A DNA stretch of 64,000 nucleotides, from IMG/VR virus record IMGVR_UViG_3300027360_000001; one strand, written 5' to 3'. A program made the position numbers and the translations under genes. Origin of the DNA: an uncultured virus (IMG/VR IMGVR_UViG_3300027360_000001). Its lineage: Duplodnaviria; Heunggongvirae; Uroviricota; Caudoviricetes. Of the stretch, positions 1-64,000 are shown piece by piece. The notes below the pieces were generated by a model. That model saw nothing but the letters and a program-made list of their open reading frames with translations. It made no database searches and had not been told where the DNA came from. Positions within the stretch are counted from its first letter, which is position 1. Each line of letters starts with the position of its first letter.

Positions 1-489
1 CACGTTGTTTCCGTTTATTTCGTACTCGGCTTCGAATCTCTCGAGCGCGTTCTTGAATAGCGCTAGGCAATTATCCTTGCCGAATTTCTCGAATGTCAGC
101 GATGGAAACGAGTCGATAACCGAGAACGTCCACGAGGTTCCCGTGAAGATAAACGATAGGATTTGGTTAATCGTCTTCGAACCGTCGGTCAGTTCCGTGT
201 ATCGATACTCGTCGATTAAATCGAAAAAGCGGTGCAACGCTGTAACACGCTTCACCGCCGTCTGGCCTATCGTACATTCTTCGAGGGACTTGATTCGATA
301 CTCCTCGCCGTCGCATTCGATAATGGACTCCTCGGCGACAAGCGGAAAGGCGTCCTCGTTGCGCTCAGTCGACAGTACCGTGAATGAAATCGACCGCTCC
401 CCGTTGACGGTGCGCTTGCGTTCGAGGCTGTCTCGTTGGTAATCGGTGAGCGCTTCGGTGACGCCCGATATGTTAGTTACGATGAGCAT
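1..489 (-). CDS. Tail-associated (Tal / prophage tail endopeptidase-like) protein, truncated by the window edge
   Basis: Not in the ORF track. ATG at 489 after an AAAGGAGG RBS; manual translation MLIVTNISGVTEALTDYQRDSLERKRTVNGERSISFTV... stays open to base 1; lies downstream of Dit. Confidence 0.7.
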   Translation of the reverse strand, partial: MLIVTNISGVTEALTDYQRDSLERKRTVNGERSISFTVLSTERNEDAFPLVAEESIIECDGEEYRIKSLEECTIGQTAVKRVTALHRFFDLIDEYRYTELTDGSKTINQILSFIFTGTSWTFSVIDSFPSLTFEKFGKDNCLALFKNALERFEAEYEINGNNV

Positions 490-571
490 AGCGTGCCTCC
501 TTTCGTAGAATTAAAAAAGAGCGGAGGGCATCCGCTCACTAATCGATATAGAAGCCGTATTTGGTTAAAAA

Positions 572-2338
572 TTAAGTTCCAGTAATTCCTCTATCTTCAA
601 CCCAATCAGTATTTAATACATTGTTAGAGCTTGTTGTAATTCGCACCCAACCTTTAACTGTATACTGACTTCCTGCTGTGCCTAAAACAGTAGGTGCGGT
701 ATTTCTAACATAATCTCCTTGCTCCCAACTTCCAGAGGTAGGCATAGCGTTACGATTGACAAATCGTTTTGTGAATTGCAATCGTGTTGTATTACCGTCT
801 CCTGTATTCGGGAATACAACTTGGAACTGTTTATCGGCTTCAGAAGATATAAAGAAGTCACGCAATGTATTTGCTGGATTCGTTCCGATAAAAACACGCC
901 CGTTTGCCGTTGTGAATCGTCTGGAATCATATCCCCATGTATCCTCTATTACTTTAGGCGTAGGCGTTGTGCCTGTGTCCTTATCGTAGATAGAACCGCT
1001 AAATCGTTGTGATTCATGTAAAACGACTCGAACTTCTGCTGAGTTATTACCGTAGAAGTATAGTAGCTTCTTCAAATTGGAGTAATAGGAACTTCCTGCC
1101 GTACCATCAAAGACAATACGTGTTGCATTTCCTATTTTTGCGAAGTATTGCACTTTACCCGCTGACGCTTGTGGGTTTGTATGGATTGACGTATTTCTAA
1201 ACACCACATCAGTAATAGCATTTGTTCCATCAATATCAATAAACGCATCTGTTACTTTGGTGTTGTCTAGATGTTCAAACCAACAATCATTAAATGTTAC
1301 TCCATGCGTACCTCTTGTATAACTTGATTTGATAAGGAATGGACTAAGCGCACCGAATCCGTTAATTACAAACTGACCATCACGAATACGAGTGTGCCAC
1401 GCCCCATCGATCTCAAGAACTCTGTCGTTAAAGAAGGCATACAGGTAATCTAATTTATTTTGGTCACTTCTAGCACCAAGATAAATACCTGTTTTATTGT
1501 AGAATAAATACACCTTCTTGAACTGATTGATATCACTCTGTACTCCCCAAAAACCATATTCAAAGTTTTCAATTTGTACATTTTGAAGAAGGATGTCTCC
1601 ACCTCTCCAATCTCGAATACCGTATGTTCCAGTTCCATAAGTGCCGAATCCATTTGTCAATGCTGTGGTAGATGAGCCGAAATATTTCAAGGACATATCG
1701 ATCATGGAGAATCCTTGGATACCATTATAGTTGTTGCTGTCGTACGCTTGACCGTCATCCGTACCTAACTGAATACATGCACCTGTACCATAGAATTGTA
1801 GTCGGCTTCCTCCGTTTTGATCTGGTCGCCCATCTCTCGTTCCGACGAAAACAAGCCCTTTTGTGTTAATTTGGATAGTAGAGTATACCTTGTAATCATC
1901 ATAAAAACGAATAATCCTATTCTTCTGCGTTATTGCTTTATTAATCGCGGCATTGATACATGGAGCGTAATCGTAACCACCTGATACAGCTACTTTTAAA
2001 TTATCGAACTCTTCAATCGCTGTCCATGTTACCTTTTTAGACTGAATCCCAATTTGGTCGTAGTTCTCGTTAATAGCGCCTTTCACCGTCTGCGCCGTCG
2101 TCTTCAACGTCGCCGTACCGACCGCCGCATCCGCGCTATCCAATCGATTCCCAAGCGAAGTCTCTCCGCCACGCGCATCCACGATCTCCGCATTCGAATC
2201 GCCCGCGCTTACCACGAGGTTATCAATCCGCGTGTCCTGCGCGTCTAACTCCGTTTTAACATCCGTAAAATTCGCATTTAAATCGTTGCGGAACGCTCGA
2301 TTAAACAACGTCCCTAAACTTCGAGGATTAAACGCCAT
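572..2338 (-). CDS. Tailspike / receptor-binding protein with pectate-lyase-like beta-helix
   Basis: N-terminal about 95 aa paralogous to 61751..63952 (RNDLNANF...AEIVDARGG); DYAPCINAAI motif followed by beta-helix-like sequence. Confidence 0.7.
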   Translation of the reverse strand: MAFNPRSLGTLFNRAFRNDLNANFTDVKTELDAQDTRIDNLVVSAGDSNAEIVDARGGETSLGNRLDSADAAVGTATLKTTAQTVKGAINENYDQIGIQSKKVTWTAIEEFDNLKVAVSGGYDYAPCINAAINKAITQKNRIIRFYDDYKVYSTIQINTKGLVFVGTRDGRPDQNGGSRLQFYGTGACIQLGTDDGQAYDSNNYNGIQGFSMIDMSLKYFGSSTTALTNGFGTYGTGTYGIRDWRGGDILLQNVQIENFEYGFWGVQSDINQFKKVYLFYNKTGIYLGARSDQNKLDYLYAFFNDRVLEIDGAWHTRIRDGQFVINGFGALSPFLIKSSYTRGTHGVTFNDCWFEHLDNTKVTDAFIDIDGTNAITDVVFRNTSIHTNPQASAGKVQYFAKIGNATRIVFDGTAGSSYYSNLKKLLYFYGNNSAEVRVVLHESQRFSGSIYDKDTGTTPTPKVIEDTWGYDSRRFTTANGRVFIGTNPANTLRDFFISSEADKQFQVVFPNTGDGNTTRLQFTKRFVNRNAMPTSGSWEQGDYVRNTAPTVLGTAGSQYTVKGWVRITTSSNNVLNTDWVEDRGITGT

Positions 2339-2357: not shown

Positions 2358-3182
2358 TTATACGTAATAATATCGAAACTCGAACGAAATACTGTACGTC
2401 CCGCTCGCGCCCGTCATCGTAAAGCTATTCGCACCTGGCGCCAATGTCAGCACCTTGCGATTCGTCGCGCCGAACACGCTCGACCCGTTCTTCAGCGCCT
2501 TCGTACCGTCGAGCACTATCGTATTGCCCGCCACTGTTGTTCCCGTGTACTGCCACGTTTCGCCTGTCGTGTTGTTCACGATTTGGAGGTTCGTGCTTGC
2601 GCCGGTGAACGTAATTGTGAGCGGCATATACCGAGGGTCGACCGTTACGTCGCCCGCGTTAAATACGCTGAACGTCGACGTGCTGAACGTATAATCGTGC
2701 TGCTCGTCCTCCACCGATAGCCCCTGCCCGATCTGCCAAAGCTCGCTGTCGAAGTCGAATGTGCCGAGCGTAGTCGACACGGACTCGCGGTAAGCCCCCG
2801 CACTGGCGAATGTTACGCTAAACTCGCCATTTGTCGGCGTGTGCTGCGTGACCTCGAAGCCTTCCGCCTTTACGAGCATTCGCTTACCCGGCTCGCGACC
2901 GTCTACGAGGTAGAACGCCTGCTTGCTCGAAAGCATCGCGAATATGTCGTTAACTAGCAACGGAAAGTCGAGCGAATCTGCTGCCGAAAAGAAAAAAGAC
3001 GCCGAGAGCTTTCGCCCCTTCAGCGTCGTGCCTGCGTCGACCATGTGGTCGGCGACTTGTTCGTATAATAGTTCCGCCTCGGGCGTGCGCATCGTGAGGT
3101 CGGTCAGCGTAATGCCGAGCTCCTCGAAATCGTAGCGCACACCGTCCTGGCGGATGAGAGTTACGTTATGTGATTGCGCCAA
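2358..3182 (-). CDS. Distal tail protein (Dit, Sipho_tail family)
   Basis: Directly downstream of the tape measure gene; 274 aa; C-terminal LAPGANSF...FRYYYV typical of Dit. Confidence 0.8.
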   Translation of the reverse strand: MAQSHNVTLIRQDGVRYDFEELGITLTDLTMRTPEAELLYEQVADHMVDAGTTLKGRKLSASFFFSAADSLDFPLLVNDIFAMLSSKQAFYLVDGREPGKRMLVKAEGFEVTQHTPTNGEFSVTFASAGAYRESVSTTLGTFDFDSELWQIGQGLSVEDEQHDYTFSTSTFSVFNAGDVTVDPRYMPLTITFTGASTNLQIVNNTTGETWQYTGTTVAGNTIVLDGTKALKNGSSVFGATNRKVLTLAPGANSFTMTGASGTYSISFEFRYYYV

Positions 3183-9814: not shown

Positions 9815-10897
9815 TTAAGCTAGAGTTTTAATTCTGCCATGCGCCTTCTCTTGCAAAAATTCTAGCGTGTACTCTCCTACTAAAATTCCGCGAGTGTAAT
9901 CGCCTTGCTCGCCAAGATATTTATGGAAGAAATCACGTCCAACTAGCGGGCGGATAGCCATACGGTTAACGTCGACTAGTAATAACTCGTCAGCTTCCAA
10001 GTTGTTATTCAATACGATTTCGAAATCACCGAAGTCTGTTGTGAAGTGGTCAACTACTTGGCCACGACCGTTATCTTGGCGATTTAATTGGATTTTGTTC
10101 GCGTCAAGAGCAGACAACGCACGTTTTTGCTTCGCGCCAACCATGATTTTGAAGTTTCCGCCAGTAGAAAAGCCGCCTTTTTCGTAGATTGATTGCCCTA
10201 GGTTGTTGAGGTGGTCAGCAGTTAACGCGCCGCCCGCAGCCACAACGTTGGAAGTGATGAAGTTACGGATACCCTTCATTTGGCGTACATTTCCGTTAGT
10301 GTAGCCTACACCACCGATTAACGCTTTCTCTAATTGAAGCACTAACTCTAATTGTTTCTTTTGCTTCTCGTACTCGTACAAGTCGCTGATTCCGTAGTTT
10401 GTCACCGCTTCAGCAGTACCGGAAATCTCGATAGAGTCGTCAAAGATTTGAGTGTAGTTAGATTTTTGAGCGCGAGCTTTATAACGTGCTGCACGAGCAT
10501 CTGCGCCTTCAGTGCCTTCTGTGAATTGGAATACGATTTTAGCGCCGTCAGAGATCGCTGCCGCTGTAGTTGAAGCGTATCCCCTAACCGCGGTTAAAGT
10601 ATTAGTGGCAACCGCAGAAATGTAAATTAACTCATCGCCAACCTTTACAACGTTTCCAGCGCGGAAGATAGATCCGTCAGCAACTACGATAGAAGTCGCA
10701 ACGTTTGTTACTGCGCCAACTACTGTAGACTCGTCAGCCACCATCTCATCTTCGAACCACTGGTGTGTAGTTTGCGTTACTGCATCTGAGAAACCTAGTA
10801 AGCTAATAAGTGGTGTGGAATGTGGGTTTAAAAGTAATAACTCATCTACTACGGATAGTTTTTTGCCGATTAAATCGGAAGTATAAATTTTTGCCAT
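9815..10897 (-). CDS. Major capsid protein (SU10 / DUF5309-like)
   Basis: TPLISLLG, HQWFEDE, NYTQIF, GEYTLE motifs; biased codon usage typical of a highly expressed gene. Confidence 0.88.
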   Translation of the reverse strand: MAKIYTSDLIGKKLSVVDELLLLNPHSTPLISLLGFSDAVTQTTHQWFEDEMVADESTVVGAVTNVATSIVVADGSIFRAGNVVKVGDELIYISAVATNTLTAVRGYASTTAAAISDGAKIVFQFTEGTEGADARAARYKARAQKSNYTQIFDDSIEISGTAEAVTNYGISDLYEYEKQKKQLELVLQLEKALIGGVGYTNGNVRQMKGIRNFITSNVVAAGGALTADHLNNLGQSIYEKGGFSTGGNFKIMVGAKQKRALSALDANKIQLNRQDNGRGQVVDHFTTDFGDFEIVLNNNLEADELLLVDVNRMAIRPLVGRDFFHKYLGEQGDYTRGILVGEYTLEFLQEKAHGRIKTLA

Positions 10898-10944
10898 GTG
10901 GAAAATCCCCCTAATTTTTATTGGTTAAATATAAAAAAGACACC

Positions 10945-11850
10945 TTAAGAGGCGTCCTTTTTACTATCTAGGTATTCTTTTAATTGTTCTTCATTTGTGT
11001 CCCGAGATCCATACAACTTGTGAAAATTGATGTGGCATCTTTCGCAAAAAGTTATACCGTTATTGACGTCGGCTCGCAACTCTCTGTTGTCCGCATAGTT
11101 CCTAATATGATGGGCGTGTAACTTACCTGCGTGGTCACCGCACTTCTGACAAGTAAACTCATCTCTTAGAAGTACAAAGTTCCTCCATTTGTCAATACCT
11201 TCTGACCGCCTTCTCTTATCCTCTCTATCCTTTTGGGATAATTCAGGATTCCAACCGTGGTGCTTTTCGCCTCGATAATCTTCGATATGACAATGGCCAC
11301 ATTTACGTCCCTCTTGGAAATGGTCAAAACGGACTTTAATCTCATGTCCTCTCGGACAGACACATGCTAATTGCTTTTTACTTGAAGTATACTCTTCGAG
11401 AAGTGTGTAGCCTTGTTTTTCAACCTCACTTCTAACAAAAGCAGGGTCTAGTTTTACGGAAGCGACAGAGCGCTTGATTCCGCATTCTCTACACCTAACA
11501 CCTAATGTAAAATGGTTGAAAGTACTATAAAACTTGTTTCCACAACTACATTTAAAATTAACCTTGCCTCGGGAGTGTACGTAAGGGTCTAATAGCTCAC
11601 AACCAAATTTGGCTACGTACTCAATGACGTATGATTCGTCCAGGGTAACCCCTTTCCGCATTCTCTCGTACCCGCAAAGAAGACATTTCCCTCCGTTGTT
11701 CACGTTTTTAACCGTGGTGTGGGCTATTCTTCCGCAAGAACACCGGAATTTAAGTTTCGTGCGGTTATTGATGTAGACGTCATCAAGTAATTCTAATCCG
11801 TTTTCTGAAAAAATACGGCGCACTTCTTCGATTGTAAGTTTTTTACCCAT
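10945..11850 (-). CDS. HNH homing endonuclease with N-terminal zinc-ribbon repeats
   Basis: Repeated CxC...CxxC units; C-terminal RDEFTCQKC...LHAHHI...NGITFCERCH; AT-rich insert between scaffold and capsid genes. Confidence 0.85.
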   Translation of the reverse strand: MGKKLTIEEVRRIFSENGLELLDDVYINNRTKLKFRCSCGRIAHTTVKNVNNGGKCLLCGYERMRKGVTLDESYVIEYVAKFGCELLDPYVHSRGKVNFKCSCGNKFYSTFNHFTLGVRCRECGIKRSVASVKLDPAFVRSEVEKQGYTLLEEYTSSKKQLACVCPRGHEIKVRFDHFQEGRKCGHCHIEDYRGEKHHGWNPELSQKDREDKRRRSEGIDKWRNFVLLRDEFTCQKCGDHAGKLHAHHIRNYADNRELRADVNNGITFCERCHINFHKLYGSRDTNEEQLKEYLDSKKDAS

Positions 11851-11976
11851 ATTAACAACTCCCTTTAGTTGTTTTAGTTAGGAGGAGTCCGCTAAGGGTG
11901 CGGAACAATCGGGCGTCCCCTATCCTCCATCTAATTAATTATACCATATTGTATAAAGTATATTCAATAGTGAATT

Positions 11977-12663
11977 TTAAAAAAGTCCTAATTTCTTTTT
12001 CAATTGAACGAATGCTACGCGATCCTCATTCTTCCCTGAGCGTTTAGCCTTCGCCTCTGCCTCCGCAAGCTGTTTAACCGCCTTAGCCTTTTCGTCTTCC
12101 CTTTTAATTTCGTGATTGCCAGGGCTAGGATCTGCGTGCTGCACTGCGCCGAACATGAACGCGTTATCCTTCTTAAACGCCTCCAACGCTTCGACCACGC
12201 CTTGCACGTTGCCTTCTTCGTCAACTGATACGCTGGACACATCGAATACTTTAATCGCTGTCTTCATCGCATCGTTACGAATACCCGCCTCTTTCAACGC
12301 GACCTTTAACTCCGCATCGATTAGGCGCTTATTTGCCTTCGCGAACGCATCGGATTGTTTCGCCTCGAATTCCTTCGCCTTCTGCTCCGCGAGTTCTTTC
12401 TCGTGCTGCAGGCGTTCGATTTCGGACATCTCCGCTTTCTTGCGATCTTCGCGCTCGGCTCTTAACTCCGCTAATTCCTTCGTGATATCATCGTAGTCAG
12501 CATAGCGCTTTTTAACTCGACCCTTCTCACGTCCGATTAGCTCGTTAAGTTCGTCTTGAGTCATCGTCACCGTTTTAACTTCGGACTTATTTTCCGGTTC
12601 CCCAACCGTTGATTTATCGGTAACTTGCTCGTCGATTTGTTCGTTGTTTGGTTCATTGCTCAT
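11977..12663 (-). CDS. Capsid scaffolding protein
   Basis: Acidic, coiled-coil; TQDELNELI...KYADYD-like motif; upstream of the major capsid gene. Confidence 0.8.
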   Translation of the reverse strand: MSNEPNNEQIDEQVTDKSTVGEPENKSEVKTVTMTQDELNELIGREKGRVKKRYADYDDITKELAELRAEREDRKKAEMSEIERLQHEKELAEQKAKEFEAKQSDAFAKANKRLIDAELKVALKEAGIRNDAMKTAIKVFDVSSVSVDEEGNVQGVVEALEAFKKDNAFMFGAVQHADPSPGNHEIKREDEKAKAVKQLAEAEAKAKRSGKNEDRVAFVQLKKKLGLF

Positions 12664-16226: not shown

Positions 16227-16787
16227 GTGATATTAATGAATACAGTACAACCGCTTAAAAATAAGAAAGACATCGAGAAAATGAAGAAAGCGCTAGGCCG
16301 CGATCGTGACCGTTTGCTTTTCATATTCGGGATAAATAGCGCACTACGTATCAGCGACATACTAAAGCTGAAGGTCGGCGATGTACGCGGCAAGGAATTC
16401 TTATCTCTACGTGAGCAAAAAACGAACAAGGAACGCCGCTTCCCGCTGAACCAATCGATTAAGAAAGCGATAGTCGAGTGCGTTCCTGCTGACGCTTCCG
16501 ACGACGACTTCTTGTTCCCGTCACGTAAAGGCGGAAAGGCAATCGGTCGTGGGCAAGCGTACCAAGTATTAAACGATGCAGCTAAACGTGCTGGGCTTCT
16601 CGAAAAGGTAGGCGAGATCGGTTCGCACAGTTTACGTAAAACGTTCGGATACCACGCGTATAAGAACGGCGTAGATATTTCGTTGTTGCAGTCGATATTC
16701 AACCACGCTAGCCCGCATACGACGCTGAGATATATCGGTATTACACAAACGATGAAGGAAGACGTATTCATCGCGATAAATTTATAA
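16227..16787 (+). CDS. Minimal tyrosine recombinase (catalytic domain only)
   Basis: ALRISD, EQKTNK, HSLRKTFG, FNHAS, TLRYIG catalytic residues; only 186 aa with no N-terminal arm or core-binding domain. Confidence 0.9.
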   Translation: MILMNTVQPLKNKKDIEKMKKALGRDRDRLLFIFGINSALRISDILKLKVGDVRGKEFLSLREQKTNKERRFPLNQSIKKAIVECVPADASDDDFLFPSRKGGKAIGRGQAYQVLNDAAKRAGLLEKVGEIGSHSLRKTFGYHAYKNGVDISLLQSIFNHASPHTTLRYIGITQTMKEDVFIAINL

Positions 16788-22061: not shown

Positions 22062-22544
22062 TTTGGACGTAAAAAAGAGCGTTAGCATAAGCGCCAACAC
22101 TCGCGTACTACTATTCCGTATCCACCTCGCCACTACCTCCGCATGTGCCACACGTCGGCTCCTCGTATGTCCCGTTGTCTAGCGTCCGCACTGTCGTACC
22201 GTACCCGTCACATGTCGTGCAGGATTGCGTTGTCATGTCGATCGCCCCTTTCGCTACTCTCGTTATAGCATATGCGATAAGGGCTCACGTATTGCCTGGG
22301 CGAAGTAAATGAACGCAAAAAAGACGCGCCACACGCTATGGCACGCCGAGAATCTTATACGTAACGTAATAGTAGGCGATGATTGCTACGATGAGCATGA
22401 CGCCCGCCCACGGGAATCGAGGCGAATTCATACGCGACCTCCTTTCGATCACTTAGCCTCTTTAGTTTCCGCAATTAGTCGTGTTATTTCGTATACCAAA
22501 TTCTGCATGCTTGTGCCTCCTTTCGTTACAAAATGCGGGTTCTG

Positions 22545-22841
22545 TTAAAAAGTTAATTCTGATGGTTTCAGCTTCTCCCAAACATCATTTAATGCTTCCA
22601 GAAGCAAATGCTCTGGAACAACTTCTAAGATTTTAGCTTTTTGCGCTTCTCGTCTACCGTCCCAATTTAAAGCTCTCCAACCATAATCATTAGTTAATGA
22701 TGCTCCTAAGTACACAGGCTTTCTTTTTCCTTTGGCAATAAACCCAACATCCTCAACCTTTAATCCACTACCCATGAACAATATCCTTATGTCGTATTTA
22801 TTTCCATCTGCATCTTTTTTAAGGATGTTCCAAGATTTCAT
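22545..22841 (-). CDS. Hypothetical protein (AT-rich cassette)
   Basis: RBS present; bounded by the cassette motif. Confidence 0.6.
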   Translation of the reverse strand: MKSWNILKKDADGNKYDIRILFMGSGLKVEDVGFIAKGKRKPVYLGASLTNDYGWRALNWDGRREAQKAKILEVVPEHLLLEALNDVWEKLKPSELTF

Positions 22842-22866
22842 GCAAACACCTCACTTTACGAATGAA

Positions 22867-23046
22867 TTAAAATCCGTATTTTTTCTTTTGGTACTCCTCC
22901 AACGCCTTAATCGCTTCATTGATCTCTTTCGTTTGTTTCTCATAGCATTTGTATCTCGCTGATGTTGCAGGGCAATTCTCCATTCCTTCTTCCAGTTCGT
23001 TTCGCTCAACCTTTAATGTACTAATTGCGTATGAAACACCTGACAT
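22867..23046 (-). CDS. Hypothetical protein, 59 aa (AT-rich cassette)
   Basis: GAGGTG RBS; MSGVSYAISTLKVERNEL... Confidence 0.5.
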   Translation of the reverse strand: MSGVSYAISTLKVERNELEEGMENCPATSARYKCYEKQTKEINEAIKALEEYQKKKYGF

Positions 23047-23085
23047 TTATCATCACCTCATTTTTAACTGAATTCGGATTTGGTT

Positions 23086-23202
23086 TTATTTTTCTTCATA
23101 ATCCTCTGCATCTGCCTCTTCTAATCCACATTCTTTACAAAATGAATTTCCACAGCAAGGGCATTGTATAAACCAACCATTACACACAGGACACTTATCC
23201 AT
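23086..23202 (-). CDS. Small Cys-rich protein, 38 aa (AT-rich cassette)
   Basis: GGAGG RBS; MDKCPVCNGWFIQCPCCGNSFCKECG. Confidence 0.5.
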   Translation of the reverse strand: MDKCPVCNGWFIQCPCCGNSFCKECGLEEADAEDYEEK

Positions 23203-23235
23203 ACTTTAAACCTCCTACAGATTCGGATATTGGTC

Positions 23236-23430
23236 TTACTTCTCCCAAAGATAATCTAAAAACCCCATATAATCATTCAAGAATCTATCATTCATACCAT
23301 CTAATTCTTTTGGTATTAAGCCGAATTCCTCTTCACTTTCTTTGATGTATTCTCTATATGTTTGAGTATTTTGAGAATCTGGTTCAATATCACAAATACG
23401 CGTATCTAAATCTTCTTTAGTTATCAGCAT
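23236..23430 (-). CDS. Hypothetical protein (AT-rich cassette)
   Basis: ORF track; RBS; bounded by the cassette motif. Confidence 0.55.
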   Translation of the reverse strand: MLITKEDLDTRICDIEPDSQNTQTYREYIKESEEEFGLIPKELDGMNDRFLNDYMGFLDYLWEK

Positions 23431-23465
23431 TAAATCCCTCTTTCCTACAAAATCAAGTTTCTATC

Positions 23466-38400: not shown

Positions 38401-38589
38401 CTCGTATTAGTCGTAATACTATATCGTATCAAAATAGGCGGTCGATAACCTCACACATTAAATACCCGAAGGGGGCCGCGCATACAATAAACGAGACTAG
38501 CGTCATAAGACTTGACTCTTCCTCTGTTACAGCCACAGTTAACCCTCCGATAAACACGAGAAATGAGCAAAATGTTGTGATATATAACA

Positions 38590-38949
38590 TTAGAAAGGCG
38601 CTCCTTCCTCTTTATTATCGTTTAAAACGAGAATCTCTTCGTCGACCGTAGTTAATAGAGGGAGGTTCTCCGCAAGTACTTGGTGCAGTACGTTCGAAGT
38701 CCTATTGACGAGAGATTCATCTTGTTCCTCTGGGTTATACCCCGCTTCAAACATTATTGCGTGAAGCACCTCGTGAACGAGGGTCTGCTCTTTTCTTTCT
38801 GTTGTTAAATCAGCGTCTATTTGAATCACACAATCGCTGAAATCAACTTGACCAAATAATCCGTATTTTCGCTGCAACCCTTCTACTTCTTGGACAATAT
38901 ATAGAGCTCCTCCCACTTTGATTTCCTTCTCGTCGAATATTTTATTCAT
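38590..38949 (-). CDS. ImmA/IrrE-like metallopeptidase
   Basis: TLVHEVLHAI (HExxH). Confidence 0.65.
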   Translation of the reverse strand: MNKIFDEKEIKVGGALYIVQEVEGLQRKYGLFGQVDFSDCVIQIDADLTTERKEQTLVHEVLHAIMFEAGYNPEEQDESLVNRTSNVLHQVLAENLPLLTTVDEEILVLNDNKEEGAPF

Positions 38950-39673
38950 TAATAATCCCCTCCATTTTCTCGAATGTATTTAATCTAGCTTTATCCCCAT
39001 GAAGTTCTATCGCGTATACATTGTACATCTCGGCCGCTACGCGCTCTGTCCCGAAATAACCTATAAATATAGATTTTCCTTGCTTTTTAATCTGTGCTAC
39101 ATATTTACTTCGTCTTTTATCGTAAGTAACTCCTATATACTTTGAGTGTACCCCTCTCACTTTATCAACTGAAAATACCTCGGTCGGTACGTAATCTTTC
39201 GGTATATCGTTTATGACAGCATACTCCCCGAAGTACTCTTCCGCCTTTTTATTATAGTGATACGCAGCATCGATCTCGTTAACAAAACACCCTAAATGCT
39301 CAGTTTTACCGTTAATCTTTATCGAGCTTTGGTATTTTCCGACGCTGATATTAAAGTGAACACCCTTGTATTTACTTGTTGTACTTGAGGACCTTTTACC
39401 TCTATTCCAAGAGTTTTCTAAATGGTTACATATCCTCAAATTCGCTCTTCTATTATCGAGGCCGTTTCTATTTATATGGTCAACGATTTCCCCATCTTTG
39501 GCTCCTGTGATAACTCGATGCATTCTCACGCTCGTTCCAGTCCCGTTAACAATGTCGACTGCAGCCGCGTAGTCAGGGTTTTGAAACCGCCAATTCCATT
39601 GTATAAGGTAATCATAGTCCTCATCATCGACTATCGCTACTTTCCCTTTCGTCAGAGGTATTTCTTTAGCCAT
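38942..39673 (-). CDS. HNH endonuclease with two AP2 domains
   Basis: VDHINRNGLDNRRANLR; twice SKYxGV...LGxF...AA..YN. Confidence 0.9.
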   Translation of the reverse strand: MAKEIPLTKGKVAIVDDEDYDYLIQWNWRFQNPDYAAAVDIVNGTGTSVRMHRVITGAKDGEIVDHINRNGLDNRRANLRICNHLENSWNRGKRSSSTTSKYKGVHFNISVGKYQSSIKINGKTEHLGCFVNEIDAAYHYNKKAEEYFGEYAVINDIPKDYVPTEVFSVDKVRGVHSKYIGVTYDKRRSKYVAQIKKQGKSIFIGYFGTERVAAEMYNVYAIELHGDKARLNTFEKMEGIINE

Positions 39674-50794: not shown

Positions 50795-51580
50795 TCATTT
50801 ACGTTTCCCCCTTTTACTCTCGCCTGTAAATCCGTACTGCAACGTGAGGTCCCTAACGCGATCATAAAGCCGTCTGTCGTAAATCCTCTCGAGTTCCTCC
50901 ATCGGAAAATTCGAAGTATAGACGGTCGGTAGTTGCTTCGATACCCGCGAATTAATCACCGTATGCAAGTCTGCGCGAAATGCATCGCTGGCATCGCGAA
51001 CTCCGAGGTCATCCAAAACGGCGAACCCTGCCGTACTTGCTGCATTCATCCATCGATAGTACTTTGCGCTATTCTCCTCGGCAATCTCACGCGGTACATT
51101 TGGTCGGCTGAACGCATTATACATGGTTTGCCATTCGTTCACGTCAAGGAAAAACGCGGGCATTTGCGCTGGCTGTAAGCCCCGTTTAACGCTTCCGATG
51201 TAGTGTCGTATCAGCCATTCGTTTAATAGCGCCGTGGCTGTCGTAGTTTTCCCTGTGCCCGTTTCCTTCGACCATAAATAGACCGACTTAATTCGCTTCT
51301 CTGGCGGCGTGTTCGCGTCCACCTCGAACTGCCTATCGAATGTCTCCGCTATCTTCACAAGTTGCGTATACACCTTCCACTGCTCCTCGCCCGCCTTGCT
51401 CGTGTCTAGCGTGGTAAGCGCGTATTCGCGGGGCACTAGCGATGCCGCCACGCGTCCGCCGCTTCCGGAGAGGCCATGTAAGGCTATAAAAGCAGGACAT
51501 GTACGGTTACACGACGAAGAGCCCGCAATATTACACGCCTGAGACAGTATACAATTCCTCTTATAATCAAATGGCATCAA
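50795..51580 (-). CDS. DnaC/IstB-like AAA+ helicase loader
   Basis: ETGTGKT, VLDDLG, YTSN, RLYDR. Confidence 0.85.
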   Translation of the reverse strand: MMPFDYKRNCILSQACNIAGSSSCNRTCPAFIALHGLSGSGGRVAASLVPREYALTTLDTSKAGEEQWKVYTQLVKIAETFDRQFEVDANTPPEKRIKSVYLWSKETGTGKTTTATALLNEWLIRHYIGSVKRGLQPAQMPAFFLDVNEWQTMYNAFSRPNVPREIAEENSAKYYRWMNAASTAGFAVLDDLGVRDASDAFRADLHTVINSRVSKQLPTVYTSNFPMEELERIYDRRLYDRVRDLTLQYGFTGESKRGKRK

Positions 51581-52487
51581 GGGACCCTCCCTCTGTACTC
51601 GGATTATCTAAGTTAACTAAATCATCTATATTACGTTTATTACCCTCACACCAATAAACATACTCCTCGAATTCTTCTACGGTCATTCCTAATCTAGCGG
51701 ATAGGTCAGGGACAAGTCTTTCGAAGAAGCGTTCTTGTATTTCTTTCTCTTGGCGCTTAATCCACTCAAAGGGATTCAGTGCGTTCTTGCTTAAATTCAA
51801 ATCACTAGATATCCAGTAGCAGTTCTGAAGAGTAGTACCGCCGTGCCCCCAAGAAAGAGGTATGAAGTGCTCTAGGTGTAGACATTCACTACTTCTGGTA
51901 AGTAGACACAAGCCTGATTGGTCTTGTAACAAACCTAATGCCTCAGAGTTAGTGAGTGTCGCCGGCAGTAGTCTCTTATAAGCACGCTTTCTTTGCCCTT
52001 GAACCACTTGCTGCTCCTTGTTTACCTCCCGCCACTTCTTCACGGATTCTCGTTTGTATTCTCTGTTGTTTGCGCTCCACTCCCTATTCCTCTTTAAAAT
52101 TTCTTCCTTTATGAAAGGGTACTTATCTCGCTTATTCTTGTTGTATATATCTCCTTTAACTTTTCTGCGATCGCGCATTTTTTGAAGTTGTTCATCCCTG
52201 TGCTGCTCATGATACATTTTGAAGTACTCTGGATTATTCTCTCTCCATAAGCGATCTTTCTCCCCTTTGCAAACTTTACACCTAGCTTCCTTCCCTGCAA
52301 TACCAGTACTCCTATTTCTGAAGTTGTCTAACAAATAAACATTCTCACAATTACAACATTTCTTTGCTAATATTTCTTCATCCGAATTCACGTAATAAAC
52401 AGATGCGTGCTTAGTGACTTTATTGACACGTACTCGCTCGTAAAGACCTATGAGGATTATTTCTTCTTTTGAAATTGCGTCAGACAC
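51567..52487 (-). CDS. HNH-type homing endonuclease
   Basis: CCNC...CKVC zinc site; EHFIPLSWGHGG...NLSK; AT-rich. Confidence 0.75.
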   Translation of the reverse strand: MSDAISKEEIILIGLYERVRVNKVTKHASVYYVNSDEEILAKKCCNCENVYLLDNFRNRSTGIAGKEARCKVCKGEKDRLWRENNPEYFKMYHEQHRDEQLQKMRDRRKVKGDIYNKNKRDKYPFIKEEILKRNREWSANNREYKRESVKKWREVNKEQQVVQGQRKRAYKRLLPATLTNSEALGLLQDQSGLCLLTRSSECLHLEHFIPLSWGHGGTTLQNCYWISSDLNLSKNALNPFEWIKRQEKEIQERFFERLVPDLSARLGMTVEEFEEYVYWCEGNKRNIDDLVNLDNPSTEGGSLDAI

Positions 52488-52794
52488 AAAATCCCTCCTT
52501 ATCGTTTATCGCTTATACAATAACGTATATTAACAGCAAAAATTAAGAGAACGTTCGTGTTTTTTCTGCGACGTTACTATATTCGTATAGCTATTCGACA
52601 ACCCTCGTATTCTACCTCGTCAGCGCCGTCCGTCGTGTACTAGATACCTATGCGGAGAACCTTGCGCTTAGAACGCCTAGATTCGCCTGTACAAGCGTTG
52701 AAACTATCACTTGGCTACCTTAGTATTCGATTGCGCTAAAATTCAACAGCGAGGCTCACAGACGTCCCAAACGTATTCCTGCGATTTTCGACCG

Positions 52795-53524: not shown

Positions 53525-54133
53525 CTACCGCACGTATTTCGTCATGAACTCGTGGAAGTCAGCGACCTGCAGCACGCGAACACCTCGGCTGACATCGCCT
53601 AACTCATACGGTTTGGGAGCGACTAACAACACGTATGGAAACACAGGCTTATCCTTGCGTTGCCATTCGAGAGCCTTCCACGAGCCACCTACGTAATATT
53701 CCTCGTAGTCCTCGATTTTCCTCCGCACTTGCTTTGCCGTCCAGTTGCCGCGCACTTGCACCTCGACGAAGAACGGAGTGCCCCGCCATATCATGAACGC
53801 GTCGGGTATCACGCCGTCAGCCACCTTACGCTCGATCTCGAATACATCGGGCTCTATATACGAACACACATCGAGGTAAAAGTCGGCGATGGCCGCATGG
53901 TGCGGGAGCTTCGCGCTGTCTCGCTTCATCTTCGACCCCGAAGGGTAATATCGATATGGCCGCGCCTTCGTATCGACATCCACGCGCCCCTGCAGTTTCA
54001 GCCGATTCATGACCGTATTGCACCCCGATATAGGACTCCGATGCTGACGGAAGAACATGCGCACCAGCTGGTCGCGGTCCAGCACACGAAACTTTTCGAT
54101 TGCACCAATTATCTCCTTGTCACGTTGTTTCAC
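53525..54133 (-). CDS. Replication-relaxation family protein
   Basis: N-terminal wHTH (RDKEII..IEKFRVL.RDQL); HHAAIADF, IPDAFM, FFVEVQ. Confidence 0.8.
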   Translation of the reverse strand: MKQRDKEIIGAIEKFRVLDRDQLVRMFFRQHRSPISGCNTVMNRLKLQGRVDVDTKARPYRYYPSGSKMKRDSAKLPHHAAIADFYLDVCSYIEPDVFEIERKVADGVIPDAFMIWRGTPFFVEVQVRGNWTAKQVRRKIEDYEEYYVGGSWKALEWQRKDKPVFPYVLLVAPKPYELGDVSRGVRVLQVADFHEFMTKYVR

Positions 54134-55341
54134 TTTCGTTTCCCTCCGTTTTTGTCGAGTGTATCGAGCAGTCCTAATTCAATCGGTTGCTGTTCGGGCT
54201 CCATTTCGACTACATTAGTCGGTACAATATCGATAGGCTTCGCGGTCTTAAACGGTTCGAGCAACTCCTCCGCTGGGTCCTTCTCGAGTTCGGGCGCTTG
54301 GATCTGCGTATACTTGTTGCCGACGCTCGCCCACATGAGGCCGCCTTGCGTTATTTTCGAGGCGTCTACATCCGTCGAACTCAAGATAATATTCGAGTCG
54401 ATTTTCGAATTTACACGAAACGCCATGCGAATATTTAGGTTCGTTTTAATATCGCCATCCACTGCGTCAGCATCTGGCCTTTGAAGGCTGAGCACCATAA
54501 ACACGCCAAGCGCACGGCCGAGCAGCGCAATGTCCGTTATAATGTTTTGTAGTTTTTTATCCTTACGTAGAACGCCGAATTCATCGATGAACAACACGAT
54601 ATACGGCACGCGGCACTCTTTCGGCAACTGGTCGATGTTAAATACTTCGTGTGCCTCGAGTAAGTCAGATCGTCGCTCACATTCCGCCCATAACGTCTTC
54701 ACCATTACGACAAGCTCGTTGCGCCGTGTTACATAACCTTTTACGCATTCACAGCGACGGAATAAATGAAATTCAGACCGCTTCATATCTGCAAGGTATA
54801 ATTCGATATTCTTCTTCGAGGTGATTAACGTCGTAATTACGGAACGGAGCTGCGTCGACTTTCCGCTACCGCTCGATCCCCCGATAAGCACATGCGGCAG
54901 ATTGTCGCCCATCATATCGACGACTACATAACGACATTTCTCGTCTTTCCCGAGCAGAATCGGTACTTTGCATTTCCGAATAATCGGCGATATTTCCTCG
55001 ACATTGTACGCGTATTGAGGGAATCGCACAGGATCCGTATGGTATATCGTCAAAACGAAATTCTTGGCGTTGGACACTTCGCTGAGCTCGAATTTTTTCC
55101 CGTATAATTGCGATACTATATACGAATGCTTCTCAACATTCGCTGGATTTACGCCCGTTGGTAGCGAAAAAACGTAGACGTCTCGCTCCTCGCTATAATC
55201 GGTGTTCACTACCACGGGAAACTGCTCGCCCTTGCTGCCGCGAAACACGACTTCCTTCGTGAGATTCATTAAACGGAAGGCCTCTCGTAGCTTACGGAGT
55301 TTCTTCGCGTTCTCGCGGCGCTGTTTTAATGCTTCGAACAT
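54130..55341 (-). CDS. FtsK/SpoIIIE-family ATPase
   Basis: PHVLIGGSSGSGKS, DMKRSE, FIDEF, GRALG, QRPD. Confidence 0.92.
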   Translation of the reverse strand: MFEALKQRRENAKKLRKLREAFRLMNLTKEVVFRGSKGEQFPVVVNTDYSEERDVYVFSLPTGVNPANVEKHSYIVSQLYGKKFELSEVSNAKNFVLTIYHTDPVRFPQYAYNVEEISPIIRKCKVPILLGKDEKCRYVVVDMMGDNLPHVLIGGSSGSGKSTQLRSVITTLITSKKNIELYLADMKRSEFHLFRRCECVKGYVTRRNELVVMVKTLWAECERRSDLLEAHEVFNIDQLPKECRVPYIVLFIDEFGVLRKDKKLQNIITDIALLGRALGVFMVLSLQRPDADAVDGDIKTNLNIRMAFRVNSKIDSNIILSSTDVDASKITQGGLMWASVGNKYTQIQAPELEKDPAEELLEPFKTAKPIDIVPTNVVEMEPEQQPIELGLLDTLDKNGGKRK

Positions 55342-58007: not shown

Positions 58008-58083
58008 CGAAAAAGAAGCGCCGATCCCCTGCGAAGGAGCCGGCGTTTTTATTTGTGTTAGATTGTCATATTCTGTTGTATTA

Positions 58084-59931
58084 TCAACCTGTTGCTTTTT
58101 GAACCCATGTGTAAGTATCTGCTGCTGTCTTCATGCAGATATATTCCTTGTCAGCGACGCCAGTTCCACCTTGTAAGATAATGGTACGACTTCTATCAAA
58201 AGAAGTAGCTGACGGCAATGAAGTGTAATAATATTCGCCAATGTTCTTTTCGCGAATCAACTTTGTTAAAGTTGTATTTTCACTCACAAGAACAGCGGCA
58301 GAAGAACCTACACTCATATCACAAATGTTATTACTGATATTAAGTACATCATAGTTTGATTTAACTCGTATACCGTTACTTGCATTAGAGGAAACAGCGG
58401 TTACGTTATTGTTTAATACGGCAACGTTTTTCCATGTTTTGCTCGTTTCTGTATCAAGTAAAACTCCACAACCCCAAGCACTTGAACCGTAATTCACGAT
58501 ATTTCTTTGTATAGTGGAATTCTCAATACCTACGATGGTTATTCCTTGTGCTGATGCGCTAATTGTATTGCCTGATATGTTTGAAGCACTTAATTTCTTT
58601 GTGTAAATCCCATTTGCGACATTGTTAAAAATATTATCGGAAATAACAAGGTTTGTGATGGGATTTGCTACTTCATCCGCTTTAATCCCGTAATCACAGC
58701 CGACAACTAAGTTACCGCTTATAGTGATGTTTTTATCAGCTATTTCCATTAATTTAATACCGAAAATAGATGTTGCATTTGCTCGTTTGTCTGCTGCAAA
58801 TACTTTATTATTTACAATTTTCCAGTTACGACCTCTTGCCCATAAACCACCAGTATTCCCGTAACTTTTACCAACGTCATAAATGATATTGCCAATCATC
58901 TCCACTTTGTCAGCAGAACCATGCACATCAAGTCCCATCAACTGCGGATCATATACATAGTTGTTATTAATGAAAAGGCTGTCGCTTCGATGGGTGTTAT
59001 CCCCTCCTGCGACGCCATGTTTGCATTTAATCATCGTGTTGCTTTCAACCTTGATATTATGACCGGAGATGTAGATTCCATATCCTAAAATCTGAGTATC
59101 ATCAAGGAACTCTTCACAGTAGTTACGAGCTGCGTAACCATTGAAACAACTATGAAGCCAGATTCCCATATAACACTGACCGCCACCGTATAACTTACAA
59201 TCAGTTACAGTAACATTCATGCAATATTTAATCCATATTCCAATTTCTTTACTGTCGTATTTTAATTGAAAGTCTAAGCCTTTGATTGTGATGTTTTTAA
59301 TGGCTCTAATTACATTTACTTTCACATTATCTGTCGTGATAGATAAACTGTTTTCGATTCCACTGTCCAATGTTAATTGATTTCCGTTTATAGCCTTAAC
59401 ATATCGAATAGAGCCTAAAAAGTAGTTTGAAGAACCTGAGTTTCCTTCGTACTTACTCGTGGTGACAAGTATGAAGTCTCCAACTTGTATATTAGATACA
59501 TCAGAAAAAGAAATTGTGTAGTCTCCTTTAGTAATATCTGCTGTTGGGACAATGTTACTTCTCACTACTGTAGGATTTGCGAAAATCATTGTGGAAGCGG
59601 CTAAATCAGCAGTTACAGGGAGATTGGAAACTAATGTAGCTTGATCCCCTGATAAAGTTACATTGCTAACATTTAATGTAATCTGATCAACTAAGTAACG
59701 CCCTTTTGGGAAAAATACAGTTCCTCCCCCTAATCCAGCAACATAGTTTATTGCATTTTGAATAGCTAGTGTATCGTTTGTAGTTCCGTCACCTTTGGCC
59801 CCGAAATCTTTAATGTTAATAATTAATTCACTAACGCTTTTAGTTAATGAACGTGCTGACGTTCCTAATTCCGTCAGATTCCCGATCTTGTCGGAAAGCT
59901 CCGATGGTTTATTCCATTGTTTCCCGATCAT
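58084..59931 (-). CDS. Pectate_lyase_3 / right-handed beta-helix protein (tailspike-like)
   Basis: NIKDFGAKGDGTTNDTLAIQNAI...GGGTVFFPKGRY; many parallel beta-helix repeats. Confidence 0.85.
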   Translation of the reverse strand: MIGKQWNKPSELSDKIGNLTELGTSARSLTKSVSELIINIKDFGAKGDGTTNDTLAIQNAINYVAGLGGGTVFFPKGRYLVDQITLNVSNVTLSGDQATLVSNLPVTADLAASTMIFANPTVVRSNIVPTADITKGDYTISFSDVSNIQVGDFILVTTSKYEGNSGSSNYFLGSIRYVKAINGNQLTLDSGIENSLSITTDNVKVNVIRAIKNITIKGLDFQLKYDSKEIGIWIKYCMNVTVTDCKLYGGGQCYMGIWLHSCFNGYAARNYCEEFLDDTQILGYGIYISGHNIKVESNTMIKCKHGVAGGDNTHRSDSLFINNNYVYDPQLMGLDVHGSADKVEMIGNIIYDVGKSYGNTGGLWARGRNWKIVNNKVFAADKRANATSIFGIKLMEIADKNITISGNLVVGCDYGIKADEVANPITNLVISDNIFNNVANGIYTKKLSASNISGNTISASAQGITIVGIENSTIQRNIVNYGSSAWGCGVLLDTETSKTWKNVAVLNNNVTAVSSNASNGIRVKSNYDVLNISNNICDMSVGSSAAVLVSENTTLTKLIREKNIGEYYYTSLPSATSFDRSRTIILQGGTGVADKEYICMKTAADTYTWVQKATG

Positions 59932-61750: not shown

Positions 61751-63952
61751 TTAGTACAACAATTGAACGGTTCCGGTGCTGTCCTTGAATTTCAGCTTAT
61801 TATCTGCGGAATCGATAAACAGTTGCCCGTTCGCAGCAGAGGCGGCGGTCATTGCTGTTAATCCCAACGCTATTACCGTCTTCGTGCCTGCGTTATCGTA
61901 TGTGCTAGGCGTGTTTCCTTCGAGTATCGCCCCGTTCGTAATGTCCGTCGAGAGCGTTCCGGAGAACGAAAGCTCCGCTGTGGACCCGTTAGATTTAACA
62001 ACGTTCTGGAACATACGTAGTGCCGAAGATGACCTAAGCTGAATACCGTTTGTAGCATACCCTTCGATTTCGTTGGCTTCGACTCGGTAAAAACGCGTCG
62101 GCGCTTGGCTTCCGTAAATACCGCGATCAAACGAACCTCTAATCCGACAGTTCCGAACGCTTAGGTCTGTTGGCGCTGTTACCTCTGCTACACGAAGCGC
62201 CCCCGCTAGCCCGCCGTTAGGTGTGACTGTAACGCTGCTATCGAGGCCATCCACATCGATAATTCCTTGCGCGTCAATGTGTACGATTGCATTGCCTCGG
62301 ATTTTCACGTTTTTCACGTAGATGTCTTTCGGCAAAGCGACTGCGGTGGCCCCGTCCGCCATTTCAGCACGGCATAATATCGCGTACAGAAACGTGCCTG
62401 ACCCGTAGTTTTCGATAGTGCCGCCTTCGATACGGAAGTCCTCCGCGCCCCTTGCTACGCCTACCGCGTATTTGTTATTCGTGCGGATATGCGGATTAAT
62501 AACGCGCATACCTTTCGAGTACGTCTTCATGCCGATTGCGATGCCCTCGCCGCGATATGTCGGATTGATAATCGTGTAATCGTAGTCCGCGTTAAAATCT
62601 TGGTTCCCCATCGCCCAGCCTTCCGAGTTGCTGTCCACGCCGACCACCGTGTCGTCCACGCTTTTCGCCCGTTTAGACCCCAATCCGTGCGTGTAAAAGC
62701 TGACGCCATACGGGTACAGGCTGTAGTTCTTCGAGGACACCCCGTCATATGAACGCGACCAGTCGACTAAGTGGCGAACGTGCTTACCGAAGTTGCCTTC
62801 GAAAACGCCTCCCGAGCTGTTATCGAGCTTAATCATATACCCGTGACCGCCCGACTGAGGACGGAAAGGATCGTACGCCTGATTGTTCCGAGCGATCGGC
62901 TGAATGCAACGATGAAAGTTAATCGCGTGAAGCTGCCATCTATCGAAAATACAACGCTCTACTTTCGGCTCAAAGCAATATTGGAACTGCAGAATATGCG
63001 GATCGCCTGCGTTCGCAGTGGATGACGCACTGCCTGGGTCGACCTCGGTAATCTTAGCGAACCCGCGCACCGTAGGCTGTTTTAATACCTTCGTAATTTT
63101 TTGGATAGTAGGCGTGGTGTCGTACGTCCATTCAAGCGGCCTTGCCAGTGTGAGCGTATCAGTGCTTACCGCCGTTACCAGGTTAACCTCCCAACGCCCC
63201 GTATACGTAAACCCCGTACCGTCCCACGAAGGAGTTTGTTTACTGTCGCCAATAACGACATAATCTCCGTTCGCAAAGTTTGAGCCATCCCCAGTAGTAA
63301 GCGCAATCTGCGTCGCCCGTTCGTTAATCGTAGCGGGAATATTGTACGACGTGCCGAGCGTTCCTTTAAACCAAATCGCAGGCGCACCGGTTACTCCGCT
63401 TGTCGTCGGGTCAACGGTAGCGGTTGCGCCGTTCCCGTTAAGGTCGAGCGACTTCGTAGCGACAAGGTTAGACCACGTATATGAAACGCTCGGGTCGAAA
63501 ATAAGTTCCGCGTATTCTACCGCCGCGTCAATCGCACGCTGAATCCGTGCCGTGTCGTCCGTCTCGGCGCCTAGCCTCGGGTACTTTTCGATGTATACCT
63601 TGCTTTTGTCTACAGCCGCAAGTTTATCGTAATTTTCGTTAATAGCGGCTTTTATCGTCTGTGCTACCGTCTTCAGCGTGTCAGAGCCGATTGCGCTCGC
63701 ATTCGCTGTCGCCTTTGCGTCCGCTGTCTGTGTCGCCGTGTCTGCGAGATCAAGCCTCGTCCGCAGGGTGGGCTCCCCACCGCGAGCGTCCACGACCTCG
63801 GCACTCGAATCGCCTGCGCTTACCACGATGTTGTTAATTCGAGAATCCTGCGCGTTCAGTTCCGTCTCAATATCCGTAAAGTTCGCGTTTAAATCATTGC
63901 GCCATGCCCGATTCAACCACGTACCGAGCTGGCGGAGTATTATGTTTGCCAT
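61751..63952 (-). CDS. Tailspike / receptor-binding protein with beta-helix
   Basis: N-terminus paralogous to 572..2338; DDTARIQRAID motif; beta-helix repeats. Confidence 0.75.
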   Translation of the reverse strand: MANIILRQLGTWLNRAWRNDLNANFTDIETELNAQDSRINNIVVSAGDSSAEVVDARGGEPTLRTRLDLADTATQTADAKATANASAIGSDTLKTVAQTIKAAINENYDKLAAVDKSKVYIEKYPRLGAETDDTARIQRAIDAAVEYAELIFDPSVSYTWSNLVATKSLDLNGNGATATVDPTTSGVTGAPAIWFKGTLGTSYNIPATINERATQIALTTGDGSNFANGDYVVIGDSKQTPSWDGTGFTYTGRWEVNLVTAVSTDTLTLARPLEWTYDTTPTIQKITKVLKQPTVRGFAKITEVDPGSASSTANAGDPHILQFQYCFEPKVERCIFDRWQLHAINFHRCIQPIARNNQAYDPFRPQSGGHGYMIKLDNSSGGVFEGNFGKHVRHLVDWSRSYDGVSSKNYSLYPYGVSFYTHGLGSKRAKSVDDTVVGVDSNSEGWAMGNQDFNADYDYTIINPTYRGEGIAIGMKTYSKGMRVINPHIRTNNKYAVGVARGAEDFRIEGGTIENYGSGTFLYAILCRAEMADGATAVALPKDIYVKNVKIRGNAIVHIDAQGIIDVDGLDSSVTVTPNGGLAGALRVAEVTAPTDLSVRNCRIRGSFDRGIYGSQAPTRFYRVEANEIEGYATNGIQLRSSSALRMFQNVVKSNGSTAELSFSGTLSTDITNGAILEGNTPSTYDNAGTKTVIALGLTAMTAASAANGQLFIDSADNKLKFKDSTGTVQLLY

Positions 63953-64000
63953 CCGTTATCCCTCCGTTAAAACAAGTTCCCGATTTACTACGCGATACCT

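Follow-up and report, generated by a model that had tools for sequence, protein, structure and literature searches.

In-gene site-specific recombination is known to alter C-terminal host-binding domains, as in the tail-fiber inversions of Mu (Gin) and P1 (Cin) and in the R64 shufflon. The acquisition of receptor-binding domains (RBDs) with sharp boundaries is usually ascribed to homologous or illegitimate recombination. According to the part of PMC10408124 that treats E. coli phage tailspikes, their RBDs are flanked by motifs of 20-95 nt, 63-81% identical, which are interpreted there as homologous-recombination hotspots. Integrons (IntI, attI, attC) offer a model of site-bounded cargo without its own recombinase and of arrays of small genes. 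The pdif modules are bounded by sites with differing centers. For Xer sites, the relevant part of PMC5357621 describes E. coli dif as a dyad with a 6-bp center, and difSL and difH as having arms that end in AAAA/TTTT beside that center.

Here, we analyze a tailspike gene that partly resembles each of these systems. The window, i.e., the whole stretch of 64,000 nt analyzed (IMG/VR IMGVR_UViG_3300027360_000001), holds most of the circularly permuted genome of a Bacillus-type siphophage of ~65.5 kb, with L001 joining base 64000 to base 1 across 1,498 bases missing from the window. The terminase is 59% identical to those of Bacillus phages phi18-2 and 268TH002/007. The tail module lies on the minus strand and runs from the tape measure through Dit, the gene at 572-2338, a 612-aa tail protein, a second spike and the lysis genes to a third beta-helix gene. 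The features around the tailspike are as follows (ranks are from the site matrix described below).

1..489, minus strand: 5' portion of the gene for the 612-aa tail protein, at the Tal position and thus the downstream flank of the tailspike; it runs on through the 1,498 off-window bases into 64000, with L001 bridging the window ends
519..537, minus strand: terminator-like hairpin on the backbone side of the distal site
548..565: distal 18-bp dyad (minus strand ACCAAA-TACGGC-TTCTAT), 6 nt past the stop codon; rank 5 of ~64,000
566..2040, minus strand: cargo, a predicted C-terminal beta-helix receptor-binding/depolymerase-like domain (AlphaFold, Foldseek), AT-rich and CG-poor
572..2338, minus strand: tailspike gene of 588 aa, anchor plus cargo; phrog_4577 tail protein match on residues 19-75
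2041..2058: proximal, in-frame 18-bp dyad (minus strand ACCAAA-TTGGGA-TTCAGT), read as D-Q-I-G-I-Q; rank 6
2059..2338, minus strand: N-terminal anchor of phage-like composition, common to 61751-63952 and to Bacillaceae prophage genes with unrelated C-termini
2358..3182, minus strand: Dit (distal tail) gene (PF05709, PF22768), the upstream flank of the tailspike
61751..63952, minus strand: second tailspike (PF13229), whose anchor is common with 572-2338, of phage-like composition throughout

The locus would share with Gin, Cin and the R64 shufflon an in-gene site-specific recombination that alters a C-terminal host-binding domain, but it has neither an inverted spare domain nor an invertase, its new domains coming from other genomes. 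Specifically, a search of the tailspike locus for inverted repeats of at least 20 nt returned none, the cargo is single, and no recombinase gene is adjacent. The likeness to integrons lies in the site-bounded cargo without its own recombinase and in the small-gene arrays, whereas the phage locus has no evident attC-type hairpin and no integrase beside its array; the sole PF00589 gene found (at 16227) is separated from the array by 5.7 kb and from the tailspike by 14 kb. Further, the phage centers are fixed by slot rather than borne by the cargo, the distal site being 18 bp long and nearly invariant across 10 cargoes, and the cargo can be an in-frame protein domain. As in pdif, modules lie between sites of differing centers. 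The likeness to Xer/dif, difSL/XerS and difH/XerH, as presented in that part of PMC5357621, consists of a dyad with a 6-bp center and of AAAA/TTTT arm ends next to it. However, Xer/dif sites have arms of 10-11 bp (28 bp in all, with XerC and XerD arms of 11 bp), whereas the arms of the phage sites are ~6 bp, with conservation confined to ~18 bp and none further out; one phage site lies in a reading frame, and no xer gene is linked. The E. coli tailspike motifs in the cited part of PMC10408124 show the same conserved anchor and exchanged RBD, with motifs likewise placed where the anchor ends and beyond the gene, but the motif in the present case is a dyad of 18 bp at which breakpoints among relatives are precise to the base. 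Geobacillus virus E2 ORF18 (PDB 7CHU) has the same slot, anchor family, KIGIL junction and both sites, and is a Foldseek match; its cargo is unrelated, and its cassette also carries an O-antigen-polymerase-like gene. A literature search, with most subscription journals outside its reach, found no description of these sites.

A tailspike gene of two compositions

The gene at 572-2338 has the makeup of a phage tailspike: in its product a helical anchor precedes a right-handed beta-helix, and the gene lies in the tail module between Dit and Tal. This position and fold suggest virion location and receptor binding or depolymerase activity. The AlphaFold model (mean pLDDT 86.8), whose input of 83 rows comprised the query and 82 of its 149 listed homologs, has helices at residues 14-41 and 75-95, followed by a link of low confidence (97-101) and then a long beta-helix; judged from the model, the proximal site codes for the link between anchor and beta-helix. 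The top Foldseek matches of the model are tailspikes, including 7CHU. At E<=0.001, 932 representative proteins match residues 120-588, and the best matches begin near residue 120, behind many other N-termini.

The original prediction described a switch from GC-rich to AT-rich DNA at the junction, and this is borne out. GC falls from 0.53 in 2058-2338 to 0.39 in 565-2041, and CG dinucleotides per 100 nt fall from 14.6 to 4.3; the best GC change-points are at 2076 and 540, and a two-state dinucleotide segmentation returns 558-2058 as the AT-rich block. The 16-mers that had been named as its boundaries, CTGAAT-CCCA-ATTTGG (2042-2057) and TAGAAG-CCGT-ATTTGG (549-564), are both present, and each is better described as an 18-bp dyad of 6-6-6 layout. 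Homology to 61751..63952 had been said to stop exactly at the codons for AINENYD. It does end at the junction, but identity between the two genes is 75% in the 60 nt before the site, 8/18 inside it and 27% after it, and thus the similarity fades within the site rather than stopping at AINENYD. In the second spike, the equivalent position (63610-63627) no longer fits the site matrix.

Because a motif drawn from the window alone might be due to chance, the same junction was sought in other DNA. An 18-bp matrix, seeded by a pattern akin to the predicted consensus, was trained on 47 sites outside the window. Against local shuffles, the ranks at 548 and 2041 correspond to P ~0.001 each, and the distances from these two sites to the composition edges are at most 2 and 9 nt. 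Seven of the top eight matrix positions are at the edges of, or between genes in, the blocks named in the original prediction, and eight window positions score at least 10, against 2.6±1.5 in local shuffles or 3.8±2.2 in a dinucleotide null. The consensus itself, CARAAT-N4-ATTYKG, fails as a window-wide signal, not being enriched relative to 60 local shuffles: it has no exact copy, 4 copies with at most one mismatch (1.9±1.3 in shuffles) and 24 with at most two (23.7±5.5), and two further copies of the last kind lie inside the cargo (1561, 1570). A spacer-length control on the window alone gave no peak, with 4 arm pairs at 6 nt and 0-4 at other lengths. The sites in the window are degenerate and might have lost their activity. 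All close matches to this phage are identical copies, with no close relative found that has the same flanks and another cargo; hence, the breakpoint evidence rests on the orthologous slot in distant phages. Contigs of four out of 16 sequencing runs showed no joints, loose ends or variants, and contigs cannot show absence.

The same slot and site in other phages

Homologs of the anchor switch to unrelated domains (pectate-lyase-like, SGNH, phosphodiesterase) at the peptide words xIG[IN]L or [QS]LA[EDQ]. Among 55 anchor loci, 14 have xIG[IN]L, 15 have [QS]LA[EDQ] (by peptide pattern), 19 have neither (several of these being short, cut or distant), 4 are repeats and 3 have no match. The 14 slot loci, which include GVE2 and PK5.1, consist of 12 loci plus L123 and L124, whose anchor is common with L122. 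As they were picked for the xIG[IN]L word and many share ancestry, the proximal site is conserved partly by construction, and the evidence therefore lies in the sharp loss of identity rather than in conservation of the word.

The proximal DNA in the 14 loci reads ATRAAA-TYGGAA-WTTTRN. Ten of them have the distal site immediately ahead of Tal, as ATAAAA-TGACGC-TTTTAT or with one base changed, and the contigs of the other four end early, 0.3-2.1 kb after the proximal site. In 22 of the 91 locus pairs, identity is at least 80% across the 60 nt that precede the proximal site, and in all 22 it then drops to a mean of 0.32 (maximum 0.50), with exact matching continuing past the site for 0 nt in 12 pairs, 1 nt in 5, 2 nt in 4 and 3 nt in 1. 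Likewise, 11 of 45 pairs are at least 80% identical after the distal site, with a mean of 0.27 before it. For L122 and L123, identity is 98% across the 4.8 kb that lead to the proximal site. Thus, by the test that the original prediction had set for itself, breakpoints among relatives do coincide with the motif at the orthologous slot, identity being lost 0-3 nt past the proximal site in 22/22 informative pairs and regained at the distal site in 11/11. The 14 cargoes are unrelated: they span 1.4-3.1 kb, match one another over at most 55-113 (short N-terminal) residues, and in several cases add a second gene. Whatever the cargo, the centers are fixed by slot, being TTGGAA at the proximal site in 13/14 loci and TGACGC at the distal site in 9/10, and the window has TTGGGA and TACGGC at the same two positions. 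Across the 14 loci, the site columns are more conserved than the preceding anchor codons, codon choice within the site is nearly invariant, and no empty slot occurs.

The second gene in Geobacillus tailspike cassettes (L008 10498-11988; L021, L085, L113, L119) is annotated as O-antigen-polymerase-like in GVE2 and is membrane-protein-like in others; it is a possible matched receptor-modification partner. A scan of viral contigs for the junction pattern yielded 48 loci, of which one is real (L145, with the distal site right after the stop codon) and the rest are chance matches or repeats.

The same dyad recurs in phages of the Bacillus cereus group. Among the 67 alignment ends between seven such regions, 10 have a site no more than 14 nt away in each of the two genomes, compared with 1.8% of single positions taken at random, and 57 breakpoints lie away from the site. 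The centers at those 10 breakpoints are identical in seven cases and one base off in two, the tenth being paired to a neighboring match. Within the variable early region of these phages, sites follow most stop codons and centers recur in similar order. SPbeta has 37 sites scoring at least 14, against 5.3±2.0 expected, a 7-fold excess. In SPbeta and in the B. cereus regions, the spacing of arm pairs has its peak at 6 nt. Two hallmarks of a crossover site, dyad arms around a center of 6-8 bp and breakpoints between relatives at the site, are seen in this material, the latter at the orthologous slot and in the B. cereus phages, and the spacer peak at 6 does not appear in the window alone. Breakpoints among 268TH002, 268TH007 and phi18-2, compared by eye, had no evident site.

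Further sites in the window and candidate enzymes

Two other blocks of the window had been named as cassettes bounded by the same palindrome, and one gene was considered as the enzyme.

16227..16787, plus strand: 186-aa, catalytic-domain-only tyrosine recombinase (PF00589, phrog_216), a candidate enzyme whose link to the sites is not supported
22528..23464, minus strand: small-gene array (four genes, AT-rich) in which the dyad recurs at 23447, 23217 (weak), 23067, 22867 and 22528, with a further match at 22545
58084..59931, minus strand: third beta-helix gene, with a weak in-frame site at 59874-59891 (KIGNL) and no fitting distal site

The claim is upheld for the array, which has sites at both ends and between its four genes (ranks 1, 2, 4, 6 and 8, the weak one ranking 80). 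Homologs of its 64-aa gene elsewhere have no flanking sites, and DNA searches with the 22.4-23.6 kb block returned nothing useful. For the third beta-helix gene, only the in-frame end stands, with a weak fit (rank 62); at the far end, near 58059, the arms are good but their spacing is one base too long, and the score is below background. The cargo of this gene is found behind other N-termini in two homologs, joined at QIGDL and KVGNL.

The 186-aa recombinase gene sits between the terminase genes, on the opposite strand, as in phi18-2 and 268TH002, and has homologs in 179 phage records. Setting site enrichment against its presence, we found enrichment in six B. cereus-group regions and one Listeria phage record, and phi105, phi3626, 268TH002, phi18-2, G692, G701 and BMBtp16 carry a homolog without enrichment. 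Conversely, GVE2 and PK5.1 both have sites and neither has a PF00589 gene. This recombinase is therefore neither necessary in cis nor sufficient. YomM has no match in the window, GVE2, PK5.1 or the B. cereus regions, and was found in 1 of 48 Geobacillus-family genomes. The prophage that carries it there has 29 sites in the 180 kb examined; one, located where the tail-fiber region ends, has the identical TGACGC center, a post hoc match with a chance of ~1.4% (29 x 2 / 4096).

The FtsK (54130-55341) and relaxase-like (53525-54133) genes, together with the 186-aa recombinase, suggest a plasmid-like prophage. A 2.5-kb FtsK-relaxase block of 268TH007 (L048) is missing from 268TH002 (L046 24119-24127) through deletion between 9-bp direct repeats. 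Two dispersed repeat families, probably phage promoters or operators, lie 5' of genes: TATACATCG-N-TTTTTGAC, in six copies (window 22018, 25874, 30744, 41895, 47997, 53358), and TATACCATATCGTAT-like, in eight copies within 11935-53480. Three further AT-rich blocks (10717-12008, 38505-39515, 51539-52551) have no site pairs, and two contain HNH endonuclease genes.

A proposed addressed exchange and its rivals

The reading that we consider probable as a whole is an addressed, in-frame cassette exchange by two crossovers at dyads of the tyrosine-recombinase type. The tailspike gene would be an anchor joined in frame, through one 18-bp dyad, to a cassette that can be exchanged and whose far end is a second dyad ahead of the next tail gene. 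Most likely, the dyad (~ATAAAA-N6-TTTTAT) is where a tyrosine recombinase makes its crossover, and the 6-bp center of the dyad would act as an address, such that a site recombines with another of like center. As the two ends have unlike centers, the cargo would be replaced by two crossovers with a phage or prophage bearing the same address pair, a natural recombinase-mediated cassette exchange rather than the insertion or excision of a circle. The proximal address, reading as xIG[IN]L, would keep the frame open and lie where a linker connects the anchor helix to the beta-helix. The enzyme could come in trans, our leading guess being a YomM-type recombinase of SPbeta-like prophages.

The dyads might instead be conserved for other reasons, as the operator of a DNA-binding protein combined with a favored xIGIL linker, and supply the short stretches of homology that general or annealing-type recombination would use. 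The word xIG[DN]L does resemble tail-fiber repeat words. GVE2 and PK5.1 have no cognate recombinase in cis, and motifs around RBDs are taken as homologous-recombination hotspots in the part of PMC10408124 cited above. Nevertheless, we judge this alternative unlikely, given that only 17-18 bp are common, with symmetric arms and a center that differs between sites, that breakpoints are so tightly placed and codon choice in the site so constrained, that the same dyad occurs both between genes and inside a reading frame, and that a search of 440-2420 gave no promoter-like match. Chance matches in the window combined with a domain acquired by illegitimate recombination would accord with the background frequency of the predicted consensus and its copies inside the cargo, but this is largely refuted, and scarcely credible, because a matrix built from outside DNA ranks the two sites fifth and sixth next to the composition edges, and because Geobacillus phages have the same two positions and linker word.

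The original prediction held that RBDs are swapped in frame by site-specific insertion. A swap at a specific, symmetric site is retained here; insertion is not, as the spacers are unlike and fixed and no slot among the 14 loci is empty. An integron-like process, in which circular cassettes enter and leave at one site, could account for the small-gene arrays with a site after each gene (22.5-23.5 kb; B. cereus phages), for the nested junctions in L030, L113 and L145, and for two cassettes that occur in swapped order in PfEFR-4 and phage 11143. Circle insertion would, however, leave like centers at both ends, whereas the observed end centers are unlike and stay fixed across 10 unrelated cargoes, and the swapped PfEFR-4/11143 cassettes keep their own flanking centers. 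An attC-type system would let the distal site vary with the cargo, and it is fixed by slot instead. Both observations fit replacement by two crossovers better, and, with the lack of joints in the contigs (which cannot show absence), they make the insertion model improbable.

The base-precise loss of identity at such sites points to an undescribed route by which phages trade host-recognition parts. As a tentative extension, about which we are slightly more doubtful than confident, SPbeta-like, B. cereus Camtre/Hubei-like, GVE2-like and 65-kb-type families may have one common 18-bp address book, with a recombinase present in only some of them exchanging genes and in-frame tailspike domains across families and thereby reprogramming host recognition, and QLAE sites behaving likewise. 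A short, addressed site at the joint between anchor and domain makes the question directly testable, in SPbeta in B. subtilis and in GVE2 with its solved tailspike. Addressed exchange would account for some of the mosaicism in the early regions of Bacillus phages, and the sites could supply a compact, multi-address recombination system.

A second site family occupies the same slot: a 7-6-7 dyad (~CGCAGTT-GGNNNN-AAYTGCG), in frame as QLAE (L005, L018, L028, L072, L073, L077, L080, L081). In 7 of 11 genes tested, a second copy lies within 60 nt after the stop codon, the centers being common only in the first GG. The window's best match to this dyad is formed by the AINENYD codons (2059-2078, 63628-63647), abutting the proximal site; it is weak, with ~0.65 such scores expected by chance in the window. 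In L030, L113, L114 and L145, junctions are nested, a type-I site being followed by a QLA-type junction or end site, which suggests successive exchanges by two systems.
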